Shown in pieces: positions 9,738 to 40,384 of a stretch of DNA of 64,000 nucleotides. Within the stretch, counting starts at the first letter, position 1. The number at the start of each line of letters is the position of its first letter. The notes under the pieces are model-generated. The model was not told the DNA's origin and ran no database searches. It was given only the letters and a program-made list of their open reading frames with translations. The position numbers and the translations under genes are program-made. This stretch comes from Candidatus Magasanikbacteria bacterium GW2011_GWC2_37_14 (GTDB lineage Bacteria; Patescibacteriota; Patescibacteriia; Magasanikbacterales; UBA922), in NCBI GenBank assembly GCA_000990355.1, contig LBSX01000002.1, positions 6,000 to 69,999 on the forward strand, given 5' to 3'.

Positions 9738-9828
9738 ATTAATAAGTTTACCATTTACAACAAAATATAACAATTGATTTTATATTGTATCGAACTTAAT
9801 GAATTAATTTGAATCTCAGCTGTAGTCA

Positions 9829-9860
9829 ACAAAAATAAGGCTTTAATTAGGCCTTATTTT
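9829..9860 (-). terminator. hairpin terminator downstream of tRNA-Asn
   Basis: AATAAGGC / GCCTTATT stem followed on the minus strand by TTTGTT. Confidence 0.5.
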
Positions 9861-9865
9861 ATAAG

Positions 9866-9937
9866 CTCGGGAGGTGGGGATCGAACCCACGACCATCACG
9901 TTAACAGCGTGCCGCTCTACCGCTGAGCTACTCCCGA
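9866..9937 (-). tRNA. tRNA-Asn (anticodon GTT)
   Basis: Manual cloverleaf: acceptor TCGGGAG/CTCCCGA, D arm GCTC-AGCGGTA-GAGC, anticodon loop CTGTTAA, T arm GTGGG-TTCGATC-CCCAC. No encoded CCA. Confidence 0.9.
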
Positions 9938-9948
9938 ATATAAAATGT

Positions 9949-10077
9949 CTGTGTATTCACAGAAACTATGAACACATTAAATACCTTATACTTAAAGTGC
10001 GAAGCGGTACCACTGCCTGCCCGCCAAGCTTGCTGGTGATTGCGCCGGATGGTTGTGGTGTGAACCGAGAGGCGGGG
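9949..10077 (-). ncRNA. GC-rich structured leader or unknown RNA co-transcribed upstream of tRNA-Asn
   Basis: 129-nt GC-rich segment bracketed by 22-nt direct repeats (9927-9948 and 10078-10099) and preceded by a consensus promoter. CCCGCC/GGCGGG and other stems are present. Class not recognised. Confidence 0.35.
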
Positions 10078-10124
10078 GCTACTCCCGAATATAAATTGTT
10101 GGTATACTGTAAAATTGTGGTGAA

Positions 10125-10153
10125 ATTATAACAAATAAAAAAACCAGTGTCAA
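10125..10153 (-). promoter_or_regulatory. perfect consensus promoter TTGACA-N17-TATAAT driving the tRNA-Asn locus
   Basis: Minus-strand TTGACA at 10153-10148 and TATAAT at 10130-10125. Confidence 0.65.
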
Positions 10154-10183
10154 TAAGGATTATTAACAAGACGGCCAAAATTT

Positions 10184-10211
10184 TTGATTTATTTAAATTT
10201 AATGCTAAAAT
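10184..10211 (+). promoter_or_regulatory. promoter with extended -10 (TTGATT-N16-TAAAAT, with TGC immediately 5' of the -10)
   Basis: TGCTAAAAT at 10203-10211, 10 nt before the Nudix ATG. The same 9-mer recurs upstream of atpG, the DUF721-like gene and lysS. Confidence 0.45.
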
Positions 10212-10220
10212 ATATCTACT

Positions 10221-10778
10221 ATGTCAGACAATAAATATTTAAACATCGTAAACGAAGCTGGCCAAATTATTGGTGAAGATTCTCGGGAAAATATTCATAA
10301 AAATGGTTTGCTACATCGCGAAGTTCATGTTTGGTTTTATACCCCTCAAGGTGAGATTATTTTGCAACACCGTGGTAAAAATGCCGAGACTTTTCCTGAT
10401 TTGTTATATGTTACTGTGGGTGGTCATGTAGAAATAGGAGAGGATTTCGAGCAAGCCGCTCTAAAAGAAGTACAAGAAGAAACAGGTGTAAAATTAAAAA
10501 TTAGTGATTTAGTTTTGGTATATAAAGCTCACGCGCCAATTGATACTGACACTGTTACTCATAAAATAAATAATACCATAAGAGCAGTTTACGTTTATTG
10601 TTATCGAGGAGCAATCAAAGATTTACAAACAGAAAAAGGTGTAGGGCAAGGTTTTGAAGTATGGCCTTTGACAAGAATATTAAATATTTCAAATGAAGAC
10701 CGAATAAAATTAATTTTTAGTATTTTAAAAGAACCAGCTTTGGGAATTTTAAAAAAGATTCAAACAATGATAAAATAG
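10221..10778 (+). CDS. Nudix hydrolase
   Basis: GGHVEIGEDFEQAALKEVQEETGV Nudix box. Confidence 0.8.
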   Translation: MSDNKYLNIVNEAGQIIGEDSRENIHKNGLLHREVHVWFYTPQGEIILQHRGKNAETFPDLLYVTVGGHVEIGEDFEQAALKEVQEETGVKLKISDLVLVYKAHAPIDTDTVTHKINNTIRAVYVYCYRGAIKDLQTEKGVGQGFEVWPLTRILNISNEDRIKLIFSILKEPALGILKKIQTMIK

Positions 10779-28640: not shown

Positions 28641-29771
28641 ATGATGATTGACACTCACTGTCATATACAATTCAATTCATATAAAGACGATTATGAAGAA
28701 GTAATAAAAAGATGCACTGAAAAGGGTATGATTTTGAATTGTGTGGGTTCACAAATTGATACTAGTAGACGAGCAGTAGAGTATGCGGAAAAGTATGAAA
28801 ATATTTATGCCACCATTGGGCTTCACCCCGTGCATTTGTTTTCCAGTGAAGTAGATGAAGAAGAAACAAAATTTAAAACGCGTGAAGAAAAGTTTGATTA
28901 TGAAGAATATAAAAAATTAGCAGAACACCCCAAAGTGATTGGCATAGGGGAGTGTGGCTTAGAATTATTTCATCTTCCAAAAGATGCTAACAAAGATGAA
29001 ATTTTGGCAAAACAAAAAGAAGGATTTTTGTTACAATACAAATTGGCACAAGAATTAGCCTTGCCAATGGTAATTCATGTACGTGATGCTTATGATGAAA
29101 TGGTAGAGTTTCTAACTGTCATTGCGAGGAGGTCAACAGCCGACGAAGCAATCCCCAGTCAGAATGGGATTGCCACACCTCGTTCGGGCGAGGTTCGCAA
29201 TGACATTTGTGGAGTAGTGCATTGTTACTCTGGTAATTGGGCTCAGGCCTCTAAATTCATTGATTTAGGCCTGTACCTAGGCTTTACTGGGATTCTAACC
29301 TATCCAACAAGAAAAACCAACCCAAAGCCTACAGAAGACCTTGTAGAGGTAGTTAAAAATTGTCCTATAGAGCGAATTTTAATCGAAACAGACGCTCCTT
29401 ATCTAGCACCGCAGAAATATCGTGGACAGCGTTGCGAGCCATGGATGGTAGAAGAAGTTGCTGTAAAAATAGCAGAAATAAAGGGAATAAGTGTAGAAGA
29501 AGTTCGAGAACAAACAGTAAAAAATGCTTTGAAATTGTTTAAAAAATTAGATATTTGGCATTTTCATACTTGTCCCCAAGCAAATCTAAAAATCCCCTTG
29601 ACCAAAGAGGGGTTTTTTAGTAAAATATGTGCGTTCTTCAATAAACAATATTCAAGAAGTATATGGCTCTTTTACCTACTGATTCCAAGGATCGTCAATA
29701 TATGTTACTTGGTTTGCGCATTGCTGGTGATTTTGGTGCTACAATTGCTGTTCCAATTGTTCTTTTTGTAA
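28641..29771 (+). CDS. tatD: TatD-family metal-dependent hydrolase (homology ends near 29550; about 75-codon unsupported C-terminal extension)
   Basis: IDTHCH, GLHP, GECGLE, VIHVRDA, HCYSG and ETDAPYL motifs. There is no in-frame stop until 29771, so the ORF overlaps atpZ. Confidence 0.8.
   Translation: MMIDTHCHIQFNSYKDDYEEVIKRCTEKGMILNCVGSQIDTSRRAVEYAEKYENIYATIGLHPVHLFSSEVDEEETKFKTREEKFDYEEYKKLAEHPKVIGIGECGLELFHLPKDANKDEILAKQKEGFLLQYKLAQELALPMVIHVRDAYDEMVEFLTVIARRSTADEAIPSQNGIATPRSGEVRNDICGVVHCYSGNWAQASKFIDLGLYLGFTGILTYPTRKTNPKPTEDLVEVVKNCPIERILIETDAPYLAPQKYRGQRCEPWMVEEVAVKIAEIKGISVEEVREQTVKNALKLFKKLDIWHFHTCPQANLKIPLTKEGFFSKICAFFNKQYSRSIWLFYLLIPRIVNICYLVCALLVILVLQLLFQLFFL
29118..29204. repeat. 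87-nt GC-rich element with 10-bp terminal inverted repeats GTCATTGCGA/TCGCAATGAC inside tatD
   Basis: Internal hairpins GCAATCCC/GGGATTGC and CCTCG/CGAGG. Encodes VIARRSTADEAIPSQNGIATPRSGEVRND. Confidence 0.85.
29594..29618 (+). terminator. hairpin plus T6 (terminator-like) overlapping the atp promoter
   Basis: CCCCT / AGGGG stem followed by TTTTTT. Confidence 0.5.
29598..29626 (+). promoter_or_regulatory. candidate atp operon promoter TTGACC-N17-TAAAAT
   Basis: TTGACC 29598-29603, TAAAAT 29621-29626, 37 nt before the atpZ ATG. Confidence 0.5.
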
Positions 29772-37341: not shown

Positions 37342-37399
37342 ATTGCCTTTTTTATACTTGGATGCTAGAATAGTGTACATATACAAGCTAAAAGAGAGC

Positions 37400-40384
37400 A
37401 TGAAAGATCTGAATTTAGAACAAAAACAAGCAGTAGAATACACCTCTGGTCCGCTTTTGATTGTCGCCGGAGCTGGTACTGGTAAAACTACAGTAATCAC
37501 CCAAAAGATTACTTTTTTGGTTAAGCAAAATTTGGCCAAACCCGAAGAAATTTTGGCTTTAACTTTTACAGAAAAGGCAGCCGGGGAGATGCAGGAGCGC
37601 GTGGATCAACTATTGGATTTGGGTTATTCAGACATGCAGATTTCAACTTTTCATGCTTTTTGTCAAAAACTTTTAGAATTTCATGGGCTAGACATTGGCT
37701 TGTCAAATCAATTTAAATTATTAACTCCCACTGATGCTTGGCTCTTGGTACGTAAAAATTTAGATAAATTTAATTTGGATTATTATCGACCCCTGGGTAA
37801 TCCTACGCGCCATATCCATGAATTAATTAAACATTTTTCTAAGTGTAAGGATGAATTAATTACGCCAGCAGAATATTTAAAATATGCGGAAGAAGTGAGT
37901 TTGGATGATGATGCCGACCCCACCCCATCCTCCCCTACAAGGGGAGGGGAACGTAAGCGTCTCACTGAAATAGCTAATGCTTATCATACTTATAATCAAC
38001 TTTTGCTGGATAATAATTGTCTGGACTTTGGTGATCTAATTTTTTATGGCCTTAAATTGTTAAAAGAACGGCCAAATATTTTAAAATTATTGCAAAATAA
38101 ATATAAATATATTTTGGTTGACGAGTTTCAAGATGTTAATTATGCACAGTATGAATTGGTAAAATTGTTTACGACTAATGGAAATCAGTTAACAGTTGTG
38201 GGAGACGATGACCAGTCAATTTACGCCTTCCGCGGAGCATCGGTTTCCAATATCTTACGTTTTAAAGATGATTTTCCTAATGCCAAAGAAATTGTTTTAA
38301 CAGAAAATTATCGTTCAGGCCAAGAAATATTAGATTTAGCCTATAAATCAATACAAAATAATAATCCCGATCGTCTAGAGATTAAATTAAATATCAATAA
38401 ACAATTAAAGTCAGTAGTTAGTAGCCTGCCTGCCGGCGAGGCAGGTCTAAAGTCTGAAGTCGAATACAAGCATTTTAATACTTCAACTGAAGAAATTAAT
38501 TTTGTAATTAATAAAATTTGTGAGATTTGTAAAGATGAATCTGTAGTTTTGTCAGATTTTGCAATTTTAATTCGCGCCAATAGTCAGGCCGAACCGTTTA
38601 TTAATGCTTTTGAAAAAGTTGGTCTGCCTTATGAGTATCTGGCTTCGTCTGGATTATATCGCCAGCCATTAATTTTAGATTGTATTAACTTTTTAAAAGT
38701 ATTGGACAACTATCACGAATCCAGTGCTATTTTTCGTTTATTACATTTACCTTTTTTAAAATTTAATCCAGATGATTTACAAAAAATAACCTATTTTTCT
38801 AAGAAAAAAAGCATTTCTTATTATGAAACTCTAAAACGTGGATTGGAAATTAATTTATCAAAAACAGGTATTGAAATAGTCAATAAATTGTTAAATATAA
38901 TAAACAGTGGCACACAAATGGCCAAGGAAAAAAAACCTATAATAATTTTATTAGATTTTTTAGAACAAAGTGGTTATTTTAAATATCTTGCCTTGGAAGA
39001 TGAACAAGGTAATAGAGAAATAATTAAACAAATTAAAGAGCTACGAAGTTTTTTTGAAGAAGTTAAACACTACGAAGAATCAGTGCCTCAAGCACGCGTG
39101 TCAGATTTTTTGGAACATTATAATTATATTTTAGAGTCTGGTGATGAAGGGCAAATGTTTAAAAATCTAGAAGAAACAGAAGCGATAAAAATTTTAACGA
39201 TTCATTCTGCCAAGGGCTTAGAATTTAAATATGTTTTTGTTGTTAACTTGGTGGAAGAACGTTTTCCTAGTCGTAAACGTGGAGAAGCTATTGAATTGCC
39301 TGTATCATTAATTAAAGAAAATCTATCAGAAGTGGATTACCATGTTAATGAAGAAAGACGTTTATTTTATGTGGCCTGTACCAGAGCCAAAGAAAAATTA
39401 TTTTTAACTAGCGCGGATGATTATGGTGGGGTGAGAAAGAAGAAAGTTAGTAGGTTTATTGATGAATTAAATTTAAGTATGGAAGCAAGGCAACAATATA
39501 ACAATGTAACTATTGACACATTGCCACATTGTCACACTGTTGACAAAAAAGATATTAATCAGTCTAAAAGTACTACAATTTTATCTGACACCTTTTCCTA
39601 CTCCCAAATCAATTCATATCTTCGCTGTCCTTATCAGTATAAATTAGCCCATGTATTAAAAATTCCTACCACAGGCAATGCTAGTTTTAGTTTTGGTTCA
39701 ACTATACATAATACTTTACAAAAATTTTATAACCAGGTTATTGAATTAAATAGTATTAAACAAGATTCGTTGTTTGTTCAACATACTACAACTAAACAAG
39801 TTGGAGAAATAAAAGTTCCAACATTGGATAATTTACTAAAATTTTATAAAGATTCTTGGCAAGATGACTGGTATCAAAATAAACAACAACGAGAGGAATT
39901 TTACAAAAAAGGACATAAAATATTGGAAATATTTTATTCTTCAGAGCAAAAAAATGGCTGGACTGTGCCAGTTTTTCTAGAGAGCGGTTTTAAAATTAAA
40001 ATAGGAGATTATTTTATAAATGGACGCATAGATCATATTGATAAATTATCGGCTGGTGCTTTAAAGATTATTGATTATAAAACCGGTAAAGCTAAAGAAA
40101 AAGTAGTTGGCGATGATAAAAATCAACTGCTAATTTATCAAATTGCCGCGGAAATTTTACCTGAATACAAAAATATTGGCCCAGTTAGTGAATTAACTTT
40201 TTATTATTTAGAAGAAAATCTTACAACGTCTTTTGTTGGCGACGATAAAGACAAAACAAAACTACAAGAAAAAATTATCAAAACAATTGGGGAAATAAAC
40301 GATTCTAATTTTGTTGCCACACCCAGTGAACACATTTGTCAGCATTGTGATTTTAGAGACATTTGTCAGTTTAGACAATTATAA
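37400..40384 (+). CDS. UvrD/PcrA-type superfamily 1 helicase fused to a C-terminal PD-(D/E)XK nuclease with Cys4 (AddA/AddB-like)
   Basis: AGAGTGKT, VDEFQD, GDDDQSIYAFRGA, TIHSAKGLEF and VACTRAK helicase motifs. IIDYKTGK, QLLIYQ and RCPYQY...CQHCDFRDIC nuclease/Fe-S staple motifs. ATG at 37400. Confidence 0.85.
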   Translation: MKDLNLEQKQAVEYTSGPLLIVAGAGTGKTTVITQKITFLVKQNLAKPEEILALTFTEKAAGEMQERVDQLLDLGYSDMQISTFHAFCQKLLEFHGLDIGLSNQFKLLTPTDAWLLVRKNLDKFNLDYYRPLGNPTRHIHELIKHFSKCKDELITPAEYLKYAEEVSLDDDADPTPSSPTRGGERKRLTEIANAYHTYNQLLLDNNCLDFGDLIFYGLKLLKERPNILKLLQNKYKYILVDEFQDVNYAQYELVKLFTTNGNQLTVVGDDDQSIYAFRGASVSNILRFKDDFPNAKEIVLTENYRSGQEILDLAYKSIQNNNPDRLEIKLNINKQLKSVVSSLPAGEAGLKSEVEYKHFNTSTEEINFVINKICEICKDESVVLSDFAILIRANSQAEPFINAFEKVGLPYEYLASSGLYRQPLILDCINFLKVLDNYHESSAIFRLLHLPFLKFNPDDLQKITYFSKKKSISYYETLKRGLEINLSKTGIEIVNKLLNIINSGTQMAKEKKPIIILLDFLEQSGYFKYLALEDEQGNREIIKQIKELRSFFEEVKHYEESVPQARVSDFLEHYNYILESGDEGQMFKNLEETEAIKILTIHSAKGLEFKYVFVVNLVEERFPSRKRGEAIELPVSLIKENLSEVDYHVNEERRLFYVACTRAKEKLFLTSADDYGGVRKKKVSRFIDELNLSMEARQQYNNVTIDTLPHCHTVDKKDINQSKSTTILSDTFSYSQINSYLRCPYQYKLAHVLKIPTTGNASFSFGSTIHNTLQKFYNQVIELNSIKQDSLFVQHTTTKQVGEIKVPTLDNLLKFYKDSWQDDWYQNKQQREEFYKKGHKILEIFYSSEQKNGWTVPVFLESGFKIKIGDYFINGRIDHIDKLSAGALKIIDYKTGKAKEKVVGDDKNQLLIYQIAAEILPEYKNIGPVSELTFYYLEENLTTSFVGDDKDKTKLQEKIIKTIGEINDSNFVATPSEHICQHCDFRDICQFRQL
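37916..37953. repeat. GC-rich module CCCCACCCC plus CCTCCCCT-aca-AGGGGAGG inside the helicase gene
   Basis: Same hairpin as 1443-1463. Encodes DPTPSSPTRGGE. Confidence 0.75.
38422..38449. repeat. GC-rich module TAGCCTGCCTGCCGG...GGCAGG inside the helicase gene
   Basis: The 15-nt core TAGCCTGCCTGCCGG is identical to 1465-1479. Encodes SLPAGEAGL. Confidence 0.75.

Follow-up and report, generated by a model that had tools for sequence, protein, structure and literature searches.

A GC-rich insert upstream of tRNA-Asn in a Magasanikbacteria genome as a probable scar of a small mobile insertion

The tRNA-Asn gene of Candidatus Magasanikbacteria GW2011_GWC2_37_14 (Patescibacteria, 33% GC) is separated from its promoter by a 129-nt insert that is bracketed by two copies of the 5' end of the tRNA and its flank. 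The insert (window positions 9949-10077) is, on balance, probably an ORF-less, partly decayed scar of a small mobile insertion type found in Patescibacteria, read through from the displaced tRNA promoter. A new functional RNA is not supported as a reading of the GC-rich stretch. The window, as we use the term, is the whole 64-kb stretch of DNA analyzed; its overall GC content is 32.7%, and that of nearby intergenic DNA is about 22%.

The tRNA-Asn transcription unit and its direct repeat

The intact tRNA-Asn(GUU) gene occupies 9866-9937 on the minus strand and was found both by ARAGORN and by the Rfam tRNA model. Its RF00005 score of 67 bits exceeds the gathering score (29), and the anticodon is GTT. 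The discriminator is G and CCA is not encoded. Genes for CNNM, glycosyltransferase, NUDIX, cupin, DUF2196 and acetyltransferase proteins surround it. The sequence is identical in two other assemblies of GW2011_GWC2_37_14, which excludes an assembly artefact.

A reading made earlier from the sequence alone (the sequence-only reading) had placed a perfect minus-strand promoter about 190 nt upstream of the tRNA, and our analysis bears this out. The sigma-70 promoter, TTGACA-N17-(TG)TATAAT (10125-10153, minus strand), matches at 12 of 12 positions and carries a TG extension, and nt 1 of the tRNA lies 188 nt past the end of its -10 element. Five perfect copies of TTGACA-N17-TATAAT occur in the window against 0.03 expected; the organism thus appears to use this consensus, and the site at 10153-10125 is very probably a genuine promoter. 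It is also the only one upstream of tRNA-Asn, as no further promoter-like site was found on the minus strand from 10124 to 9938. Transcription would start near 10118. At the other end of the unit, a hairpin read off the sequence, UAAGGC-(9 nt)-GCCUUA followed by UUUUU (9831-9856, minus strand), is likely the intrinsic terminator; with too few G-C pairs in its stem, it escaped a terminator scan.

The direct repeat (9927-9948 and 10078-10099) is identical at 21 of 22 positions, also in agreement with the sequence-only reading, and extends to 29 nt at 86%. On the minus strand it consists of 11 nt of 5' flank and tRNA nt 1-11 (UCGGGAGUAGC), spanning positions -11 to +11. The window has no further copy of the 22-nt repeat, and 100 shuffles yielded none. 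The left, upstream copy (10078-10106, minus strand; core 10099-10078) ends in an orphan tRNA 5' fragment, UCGGGAGUAGC at 10088-10078. The right, downstream copy (9927-9955, minus strand; core 9948-9927) contains the flank and nt 1-11 of the intact tRNA. Lacking a 3' acceptor strand as a partner, the upstream copy should not be an RNase P substrate; the sole CUCCCGA partner of its UCGGGAG is the 3' end of the tRNA itself.

Between the two copies the composition changes abruptly. The insert had been described as strikingly GC-rich over all 129 nt; this applies to the first 82 nt (9996-10077, minus strand), a body without an ORF that has 64.6% GC, but not to the last 47 nt (9995-9949), which have 27.7%. 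The CCCGCC/GGCGGG arms pointed out earlier are present in the GC-rich segment, but the segment folds no better than dinucleotide shuffles, with z = +0.6 for minus-strand RNA, +0.2 for plus-strand RNA and 0.0 for DNA. The AU-rich part (9938-9995, minus strand) forms a hairpin at approximately 9990-9938, up to tRNA position -1, which folds unusually well (z = -3.14). The 3' arm of this hairpin is part of the right repeat copy, a U-rich tract comes next, and a scan returned a terminator-like match at 9963-9948. The hairpin with its U-rich tract could be a weak terminator or a pause site.

GIY-YIG-associated insertions in other patescibacterial tRNA genes

The architecture of repeat plus insert is common to four other patescibacterial tRNA genes, one for Trp, one for Ser and two for Gln. 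At these loci an upstream 12-22-nt copy of the flank and of tRNA nt 1-11/13 is followed by a GC-rich twin hairpin, an ORF for a GIY-YIG nuclease of 86-88 amino acids and the intact tRNA. At the tRNA-Trp gene (L174) the repeat is identical at 14 of 14 positions and consists of TAT and nt 1-11 (-3 to +11), with copies 332 nt apart; the insert CGCCTCACCGGCGACCCGCCGAAGAGGCTGG precedes an 87-amino acid GIY-YIG ORF. The repeat measures 22 nt (-9 to +13) at the tRNA-Ser gene (L185) and 18 nt (-5 to +13) at the tRNA-Gln(UUG) gene (L180), whose metagenome is also the source of the window; at both loci the twin hairpin and then the ORF follow. At the tRNA-Gln(CUG) gene (L195), nt 1-12 (+1 to +12) are followed by the twin hairpin, nt 13-20, the ORF and the intact tRNA. 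We defined a provisional family, tRNA D-arm insertions with a GIY-YIG ORF and a twin hairpin, from these four loci. They were reached via the GIY-YIG protein and give no unbiased background rate of tRNA 5'-end duplications.

The twin hairpin begins 1-3 nt past the orphan tRNA fragment and consists of H1, GCC-UCNNC-GGC, and H2, GCC-GARGA-GGC, whose outer stems covary. In the H1H2 alignment 97.9% of cells are paired and six pairs show compensatory changes; covariation scores 0.574, while shuffles give 0.142 and none of 500 reaches the observed value. This pattern of substitution argues that H1H2 is a selected structure. The GIY-YIG ORF is co-oriented with the tRNA and its end meets or overlaps the beginning of the intact gene, and the proteins consist of the catalytic domain only, without a DNA-binding domain. 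At L174 the promoter lies upstream of the orphan copy and not before the intact tRNA, the same as in the window. Elements of this type are presumably mobile. No description of GIY-YIG/tRNA duplication elements was found in the searchable literature.

The window locus shares the repeat architecture of this family, with an orphan copy upstream and an intact tRNA downstream of an insert flanked by positions -11 to +11. Its repeat stops at tRNA nt 11, and the repeats at all four loci stop at nt 11-13. Additionally, the GC-rich body opens with CCGCCTCTCGG (10075-10065), which is probably a decayed copy of the H1 hairpin, GCC-UCNNC-GGC, that the relatives have after the orphan fragment. Where the relatives have GCCTCNNCGGC 1-3 nt past this fragment, the window has GCCTC-T-CGG 4 nt past it in the same orientation. 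CCGCCTC occurs a single time in 128 kb (both strands of the window), exactly at this junction, and the looser pattern GCCTC.{1,3}CGG only twice in the window. The loop of the H1-like motif is one nucleotide short and its 3' arm is decayed (GGUU for GGCNNN).

The rest of the element could not be recognized in the insert. An H1H2 profile (nhmmer) gave nothing significant against the window, GCCGA[AG]GAGGC occurs nowhere in it, and the insert contains no recognizable H2 hairpin. The insert is weakly similar overall to the element ends of relatives. Its best match, 20 of 22 positions to the H2 region of L174, is inverted and divergent in the loop; 4 of 300 shuffles do as well, uncorrected for approximately 18 comparisons. 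The 64-kb window contains no GIY-YIG gene, with no tblastn match of two GIY-YIG proteins at E<=1, and its AU-rich part has no similarity to the 3' ends of the GIY-YIG ORFs. Statistics do not support a GIY-YIG ORF remnant, either in the AU-rich spacer or on the plus strand, where ATGGTTGTGGTGTGA follows a GCTGGTGAT motif that L174 also has. Given that there is no ORF, no similarity to an ORF 3' end and only 47 AU-rich nt, we filed the window copy as an ORF-less relative of the family and not as a full member.

The likeness to the GIY-YIG loci could instead be coincidental. In a local duplication unrelated to GIY-YIG/hairpin elements, replication slippage or illegitimate recombination could have copied roughly 22-29 nt around the beginning of the tRNA gene, with some 130 nt of filler, such as a foreign GC-rich fragment, caught in between. 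The insert has no significant overall similarity to any retrieved sequence, it lacks the ORF and H2, and it is not unusually structured, as opposed to three of five other tested GC-rich islands that fold strongly. Such a duplication would not, however, account for a repeat that stops at tRNA nt 11 like those of four independent GIY-YIG insertions (nt 11-13), nor for the only CCGCCTC of the window falling at the junction in the expected orientation. We therefore consider this explanation unlikely.

Regulatory, RNA and integrase readings of the insert

Comparison with the tRNA-Asn loci of relatives gave no trace of the insert. The GC-rich segment is absent at tRNA-Asn of the nearest accessible relatives (L003, L165 and L167), the insert has no homology to the leaders of any of the three, and no homologue of the segment was found elsewhere in the window or in any retrieved relative. 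We did not find an empty-site strain, since even the nearest relative available shares only 73% identity in the neighboring protein. The protein database holds no relative between 73% and 100% identity, with exact-sequence clusters consisting of GW2011_GWC2_37_14 only, and when genome and metagenome contigs were scanned with a protein anchor, no match exceeded 71% identity. L165 carries a group I intron inside the orthologous tRNA-Asn; the insert has no significant similarity to it that would mark it as an intron remnant. Group I introns have been described in tRNA genes of Patescibacteria, among them tRNA-Asn with an intron at position 35/36 (PMC13011429). They too are selfish elements in the tRNA genes of this phylum, but they interrupt the anticodon loop, are removed from the RNA by splicing and make no duplication, whereas the window insert follows an orphan fragment after its nt 11, lies upstream of a tRNA that is itself uninterrupted and has no group I intron signature.

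At the position equivalent to the insert, both L003 and L167 have an Asn-codon-rich leader ORF and a terminator before tRNA-Asn, and the L003 leader carries MKTTRLNNNNNNSPAGGV together with its terminator. These leaders make regulation of tRNA-Asn by a leader plausible. In the window, a leader of 180 nt might sense tRNA-Asn, through T-box-like pairing of UGGUACC with the tRNA 3' end or through another attenuator, and control read-through of the AU-rich hairpin and U-tract. The T-box core consensus is GUGGNACCGCG. The window sequence GUGGUACCGC (10013-10004) matches it at 10 of 11 positions, and a stable hairpin with a U-rich tail adjoins the tRNA. While the core match is real and is followed, as in a T-box riboswitch, by a downstream hairpin with a U-rich tail, the other T-box features are absent. 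The UGGUACC at 10012-10006 has no helix A1 partner after it and A2 would be 2 bp; Stem I, the K-turn, the specifier loop and the distal platform are missing from both the minimum-free-energy and the centroid folds, as is an antiterminator; the Rfam T-box model has no match at E<=10 over 451 nt; and the downstream gene is a tRNA, not an aminoacyl-tRNA-related gene. A leader-peptide attenuator fares no better, as the stretch from 10118 to 9938 has no ORF that starts with AUG and contains Asn codons, and the window has no Asn-run ORF. No description of leader-peptide attenuation of tRNA genes was found in the literature. Finally, the GC-rich segment is neither conserved nor stably folded, and a cis-regulatory leader leaves the 22-nt duplication unexplained, making this reading quite improbable.

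The sequence-only reading had also offered an unrecognized structured RNA, released from a common precursor by RNase P-type cleavage at the duplicated site. Such an RNA, of about 100-130 nt, would be co-transcribed with tRNA-Asn. A strong promoter lies directly upstream, the segment is GC-rich in an AT-rich genome like tRNAs and other stable RNAs, and the duplication includes the sequence around the RNase P site of the tRNA. The evidence nevertheless does not support it. The covariance-model scan proposed earlier for SRP, 6S, tmRNA and tRNA-like RNAs was run, and the GC-rich segment matches no Rfam family. In a cmscan of 9800-10250 with Rfam 15 at E<=10, only the tRNA and chance matches of at most 18 bits were returned, with no match for SRP, 6S, tmRNA, RNase P, T-box, group I/II introns or the rest of Rfam; over the whole window at gathering thresholds the tRNA alone was found. 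Fragments of SRP, 6S, tmRNA and RNase P RNAs were rejected on these grounds, and SRP domain IV also by eye, as the AGCA and CAGG motifs of the segment are in the wrong order for it. Fold z-scores are about zero on both strands, no homologue exists among the retrieved relatives or in the rest of the window, and a tRNA-like RNase P substrate cannot form upstream, where the UCGGGAG has no partner of its own and there is no acceptor strand. An independent RNA freed by processing is thus very unlikely.

A related suggestion, that the segment is a disrupted second tRNA copy, holds for the 11 nt upstream of it, which are an orphan tRNA 5' fragment, but not for the GC-rich body. The body has neither a 3' acceptor strand nor T-arm pairing, and neither ARAGORN nor Rfam detected a tRNA or tRNA-like RNA in 9996-10088.

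The small integrated or degraded element also envisaged by the sequence-only reading is the origin that we favor, given the recurrence of the architecture at four tRNA genes with a GIY-YIG ORF and a twin hairpin, but not in the form of an integrase element with att-like repeats. Known tRNA-targeting integrases are reported (Williams 2002) to act at the anticodon loop or T-loop or at the 3' end, so that the element restores the 3' part of the gene. It is highly improbable that the insert is the scar of such an element, its body since deleted between attL and attR: imperfect 22-29-nt direct repeats overlapping a tRNA gene are typical of att sites, and integrase islands too have repeats that include part of a tRNA gene and keep one intact tRNA, but here the 5' end is duplicated together with locus-specific host flank, no integrase or recombinase was found within several kb or among the small ORFs scanned, and the insert is just 129 nt. 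Two exact-pattern scans of viral contigs for a phage or plasmid attP gave chance matches in GC-rich phages or nothing.

Proposed insertion mechanism, related elements and other GC-rich islands

If the insert is the scar of a small mobile insertion, its history may be modeled on the four comparison loci. The element would enter the D-stem region (nt 11-13) of tRNA genes, and an intact insertion would read, 5' to 3', host promoter, orphan flank with tRNA nt 1-11/13, twin hairpin, GIY-YIG ORF, and a second copy joined to the rest of the tRNA. This last copy again holds flank plus the 5' end of the tRNA, and one intact gene thus survives. The duplication would be made at insertion, either as a long target duplication by staggered nicks approximately 14-22 nt apart or by gap repair. 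What may remain in the window is the 22-nt target duplication and a decayed H1-like start, followed by other GC-rich DNA and then the AU-rich hairpin. Transcription of tRNA-Asn would proceed from a promoter displaced 151 nt upstream, and RNase P would cut off the resulting leader, about 180 nt long, at the downstream copy only. The GC-rich segment would be functionless for the cell. The first bases of the insert, CUCUCGG, may pair with the orphan UCGGGAG and thereby spare the folding of the tRNA.

On this reading a candidate "new RNA" at the tRNA-Asn locus falls away, and the distance of nearly 190 nt between the tRNA gene and its promoter is explained. The comparison loci suggest how a selfish nuclease gene can repeatedly settle in an essential tRNA gene without destroying it: it duplicates the 5' end of the tRNA and borrows its promoter. 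More tentatively, it is possible that Patescibacteria harbor undescribed miniature mobile elements made of a covarying GC-rich twin hairpin with or without a gene for an 86-88-amino acid, catalytic-domain-only GIY-YIG protein. These would insert into the D-stem, with the tRNA regenerated through a 12-22 nt duplication and the tRNA promoter expressing the nuclease, and the window would hold an ORF-less copy at tRNA-Asn and several solo modules. If this is true, they would be a new kind of element in the mobile repertoire of ultra-small bacteria, and would provide a natural substrate for the abundant, uncharacterized GIY-YIG proteins that have a catalytic domain only and an explanation for GC-rich in-frame insertions in patescibacterial proteins. 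The annotation of tRNAs and noncoding RNAs in such genomes could then be corrected, as orphan tRNA fragments and GC-rich islands are easily taken for RNA genes.

Free-standing GIY-YIG homing endonuclease genes are known to adjoin tRNA genes, for example segB in the tRNA cluster of phage T4 (PMC2330249). Similar to the patescibacterial loci, Seg-type elements place a small, co-oriented GIY-YIG gene among or against tRNA genes, and their spread is presumed to occur via DNA breakage and repair. In contrast, the patescibacterial proteins are catalytic domains of 86-88 amino acids, and their hosts are cellular genomes, not phages. Additionally, the patescibacterial insertions duplicate 12-22 nt and carry a conserved GC-rich twin hairpin that is not described for Seg, and the window copy has no ORF.

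The same genome contains other GC-rich insertions, several of them strongly hairpin-forming and some in frame within genes; those in frame in the window lie in TatD, TrmH-family, TagA-like and probably UvrD genes. No description of GC-rich in-frame insertions in the candidate phyla radiation was found in the literature. We tested five other islands, three of which fold strongly (z about -5) and two of which do not. The islands share motifs among themselves and weakly with the tRNA-Asn insert, which reaches a similarity z-score of 2.7 to the island at 1435-1510 (9 of 300 shuffles reach it) and 1.8 to that at 62544-62680. Given this weak similarity and its lack of a palindrome (z about 0), the insert was rejected as a member of the hairpin-forming group. 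No direct repeats were found flanking the other islands.

REP-type palindromes tagged by GTAG have been described (PMC3733652), and the islands resemble them and the Rickettsia palindromic elements as short GC-rich insertions, several palindromic, in an AT-rich reduced genome, some in frame in genes and several after GTAG. Unlike in those systems, no Y1 (RAYT) transposase was found among the ORFs examined in 64 kb of genome, and the sequence families are only loosely shared. REPs and Rickettsia elements also lack the long flanking direct repeat that the non-palindromic tRNA-Asn insert has. GUAG(C) precedes the tRNA-Asn insert, and GTAG is also found beside the hairpins at islands 1464, 61330 and 62574.

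Promoter, repeat and composition at the tRNA-Asn locus

The only tRNA gene in the window is tRNA-Asn(GUU), identified on the minus strand at 9866–9937 by ARAGORN and Rfam. The sequence-only reading had placed a perfect minus-strand promoter upstream of it, and the site at 10153–10125 does match TTGACA-N17-TATAAT at 12 of 12 positions, with a TG extension in addition. Perfect sites of this consensus occur five times in the window versus 0.03 expected from shuffles, indicating that the organism uses the consensus and that the site at 10153–10125 is almost certainly a promoter. The same reading had described a 22-nt direct repeat, which was confirmed by alignment: the copies at 9927–9948 and 10078–10099 are identical at 21 of 22 positions (86% when extended to 29 nt) and, on the minus strand, consist of 11 nt of flank followed by tRNA nt 1–11. 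No further copies were found in the window or in shuffles. The 129 nt between the copies (9949–10077) had been called strikingly GC-rich. This holds for the first 82 nt (10077–9996, minus strand; 64.6% GC versus 32.7% for the window) but not for the last 47 nt, at 27.7% GC, so the insert is uneven in composition.

The locus runs from promoter to orphan 5′ tRNA fragment, the insert with its GC-rich part and AU-rich hairpin, intact tRNA and terminator. The host is a patescibacterium (candidate phyla radiation) from groundwater; the proteins encoded around the locus match entries of Candidatus Magasanikbacteria bacterium GW2011_GWC2_37_14 (contig US42_C0002) at 100% identity. The locus is unchanged in two further assemblies of this organism; beyond it, the databases searched contained no relatives above 73% identity of CNNM, the protein encoded beside the tRNA gene.

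The same arrangement at tRNA genes of relatives

This arrangement recurs at other tRNA genes, together with a junction motif. Genome L174 was reached through CNNM homology (its CNNM is 71% identical to that of the window), and three further independent cases were reached by following homologues of its GIY-YIG protein to their contigs. In L174, TAT plus nt 1–11 of tRNA-Trp is duplicated exactly, 332 nt upstream. The orphan copy has a promoter-like site upstream and is followed by CGCCTCACCGGCGACCCGCCGAAGAGGCTGG and then by an 87-aa GIY-YIG ORF ending 6 nt before the intact tRNA-Trp. The repeat measures 22 nt (−9 to +13) at tRNA-Ser(GGA) of L185 and 18 nt (−5 to +13) at tRNA-Gln(UUG) of L180; L180 and the window come from one metagenome. 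At tRNA-Gln(CUG) of L195 and its allies, the order is nt 1–12, hairpins, nt 13–20, ORF and intact tRNA. All of the upstream copies stop at nt 11–13 of the tRNA, that of the window at nt 11. L184 (1426–1890) is a mirrored variant in which an intact tRNA-Pro is followed after 3 nt by the GIY-YIG ORF and then by a partial second tRNA-Pro copy. This copy begins at the D-loop and is broken by a 51-nt nested GC-rich palindrome after GGTAG (D-loop) and by a 21-nt hairpin, GCC-GAGGA-GGC, in the T-loop. Lastly, the element of L176 lies directly 3′ of the dnaX stop codon, without a tRNA.

Beside the orphan fragment, the relatives carry a twin-hairpin module, H1 (NNNGCC-UCNNC-GGCNNN) and H2 (NNNGCC-GARGA-GGCNNN). 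In eight sequences, hand-trimmed to a common register (one linker base removed in one row, a shared G doubled in four), 97.9% of cells are paired, with compensatory changes at all three outer pairs of both helices. The covariation score of 0.574 (0.142 in shuffles) was reached by 0 of 500 shuffles, and pairing collapses in slid registers. The module is also found alone, for example within a GtrA-like ORF of L180.

The window insert starts with GUAGC|CCCC-GCCUC-U-CGG-UUCAC, an H1-like sequence oriented as in the relatives and located 4 nt from the orphan fragment (1–3 nt in the relatives). CCGCCTC occurs once in 128 kb (both strands), precisely at the insert junction, while the looser GCCTC.{1,3}CGG occurs twice, the second being a solo hairpin, CTGCC-TCGCC-GGCAG, in a UvrD-like gene. 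H2 is absent from the window and a search with an H1H2 profile returned nothing significant there. Beyond this, the insert comes closest to the H2 region of L174, which it matches at 20/22 when inverted, non-significantly after correction. Additionally, the AU-rich spacer has no trace of an ORF end, and the 64-kb window contains no GIY-YIG gene. Because the window copy has the architecture of the provisional element family while lacking the ORF and H2, we file it as a putative ORF-less, decayed relative of the GIY-YIG/twin-hairpin elements. A local duplication with filler DNA, unrelated to these elements, is unlikely. The feature at tRNA-Asn itself is probably a scar, of modest interest.

Rickettsia palindromic elements are a precedent for GC-rich palindromes, in-frame ones included. 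GTAG-tagged REPs are another (PMC3733652), and phage T4 segB is a free-standing GIY-YIG homing endonuclease among tRNA genes (PMC2330249). The combination of a catalytic-domain-only GIY-YIG gene, a covarying twin hairpin and a tRNA 5′-end duplication is undescribed in the literature searched (outside subscription journals); the element type to which the window scar points may be new, and it merits a systematic survey.

RNA readings of the insert, origin and expression

A covariance-model scan, suggested by the sequence-only reading, was performed with all Rfam families on 9800–10250 and returned only the tRNA and chance matches at E ≤ 10. The GC-rich segment showed no excess folding over dinucleotide shuffles (RNA z = +0.6 and +0.2 on the two strands, DNA 0.0), and the window holds no second copy. 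The leaders of the retrievable orthologous tRNA-Asn loci (L003, L165 and L167) differ, and none has significant similarity to the segment. Positive evidence for a structured RNA, one of the explanations offered originally, or for a known riboswitch is thus absent. GUGGUACCGC (10013–10004) matches the T-box core at 10 of 11 positions; a T-box was rejected since antiterminator, Stem I and specifier cannot be drawn and the scan gave no T-box score. The position would fit a regulatory leader of tRNA-Asn, but this quite unlikely reading lacks structural support and leaves the repeat unexplained. Contradicted by several tests, an independent sRNA is very doubtful. For the orphan UCGGGAG, a complementary CUCCCGA exists only at the 3′ terminus of the intact tRNA, so the upstream copy offers no tRNA-like RNase P substrate. 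The earlier idea of RNase P-type cleavage at the duplicated site is not supported.

In each case the repeated flank is locus-specific, which argues for duplication of host sequence made at insertion and not for a sequence carried in like an att site. The repeat would be a long target duplication or a gap-repair product arising on insertion. The degraded element proposed earlier is supported in an altered form, as a probable scar whose architecture recurs at other tRNAs, without the att-like nature. A scar left by an integrase is highly improbable, as several tests contradict it.

Between the repeat copies there is no further promoter-like site, which suggests that tRNA-Asn is transcribed from the displaced promoter. 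The transcript would carry a leader of ∼180 nt and be matured by RNase P at 9937. In ORF-bearing elements, the tRNA promoter would drive the nuclease through the same arrangement. Pairing is possible between CUCUCGG, at the insert 5′ end, and the orphan UCGGGAG, and may stop the orphan from competing for the tRNA 3′ strand. The extended AU-rich hairpin (folding z = −3.1) and its U-rich tail might act as a pause site or a partial terminator.

Other GC-rich islands and tRNA-Asn neighbourhoods

The intergenic island at 1435–1507, directly after an intrinsic terminator (1401–1431), contains two perfect hairpins, CCCTCCCCT-ATG-AGGGGAGGG and GTAG-CCTGCC..GGCAGG. Among the GC-rich islands, this one is the similarity hub (z = 4.5–5.7 to three others, 2.7 to the tRNA-Asn insert). 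At 61275–61361, a TrmH/SpoU-family methyltransferase gene (ORF 61243–62070, minus strand) contains an in-frame, GC-rich insert (CPSAGYPRPELGSKAGQ) that shares the 12-mer GGGTAGCCTGCC with this island. The insert also contains GTAGCC-TGCCGAAGGGCAAC, which matches the L195 H2 hairpin at 14/15 (one gap), and just precedes the SLNV motif, with ∼9–15 residues extra relative to PDB homologues. The UvrD/PcrA-like helicase gene (ORF 37343–40384, plus strand) carries a GC-rich stretch (37886–37969) and the solo hairpin resembling H1 (38430–38444); the hairpin of the stretch, CCTCCCCT-ACA-AGGGGAGG, is 90% identical over 21 nt to the island at 1435–1507. A 146-nt block of 74% GC (62544–62689), in frame within a TagA/WecG-like glycosyltransferase gene (ORF 62016–62888, minus strand), forms five consecutive hairpins (z = −5.0) and adds ∼37–46 residues (MWLPHSFQEGVGLPDMPSRQAGGVAEADETPANSTGLRPPPLRKRR) without counterpart in PDB 7mpk. 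Within a TatD-family gene (ORF 28641–29771, plus strand), a 99-nt GC-rich in-frame element (29112–29210) carries inverted repeats of 14 nt at its termini (AACTGTCATTGCGA / TCGCAATGACATTT), encloses two hairpins (z = −5.2) and adds ∼23 residues relative to PDB 1j6o.

In L165, a Magasanikbacteria relative (686-kb contig JACPSK010000001), the orthologous tRNA-Asn (1385–1850) is split by a ∼400-nt insert between anticodon positions 35/36 and is missed by ARAGORN. This fits the group I introns published for that position of patescibacterial tRNA-Asn (PMC13011429). At 1–437 of the same locus, a GIY-YIG ORF lies ∼100 nt downstream of tRNA-Gln.

The tRNA-Asn genes of L003 (2570–2728) and L167 (1–96), located near or upstream of the gene for the CNNM orthologue, each follow a short Asn-codon-rich ORF, although AT-rich DNA often contains AAU runs. 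The L003 ORF encodes MKTTRLNNNNNNSPAGGV before its stop and is apparently leaderless; that of L167 ends in NNNNVNNTP. Both loci have a GC hairpin with U5 10–20 nt before the tRNA, and both leaders contain short repeats (TTTTTCAAT, TTCAATGG), which could be scars of insertions. In L003 the terminator arms, CCCGCC/GGCGGG, can form alternative pairs with the ORF end (CCCGCC GGCGGA), an arrangement like that of a classical leader-peptide attenuator. Were this the case, charging of its own product would control a tRNA gene, of which we found no description.

In L173, with DUF2196-NUDIX-CNNM synteny, the NUDIX-CNNM spacer lacks a tRNA. A GC-rich stretch at 2825–2900, without an Rfam match, starts with CCTCGTAGCTTCAGCCGGGG, which resembles a tRNA 5′ fragment, and is possibly a decayed tRNA locus. 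In L163/L164 (608–1780), whose CNNM shares 73% identity, the place just upstream of the CNNM gene is taken by an asparaginase gene instead of the tRNA-Asn found there in other relatives, which is probably a coincidence.
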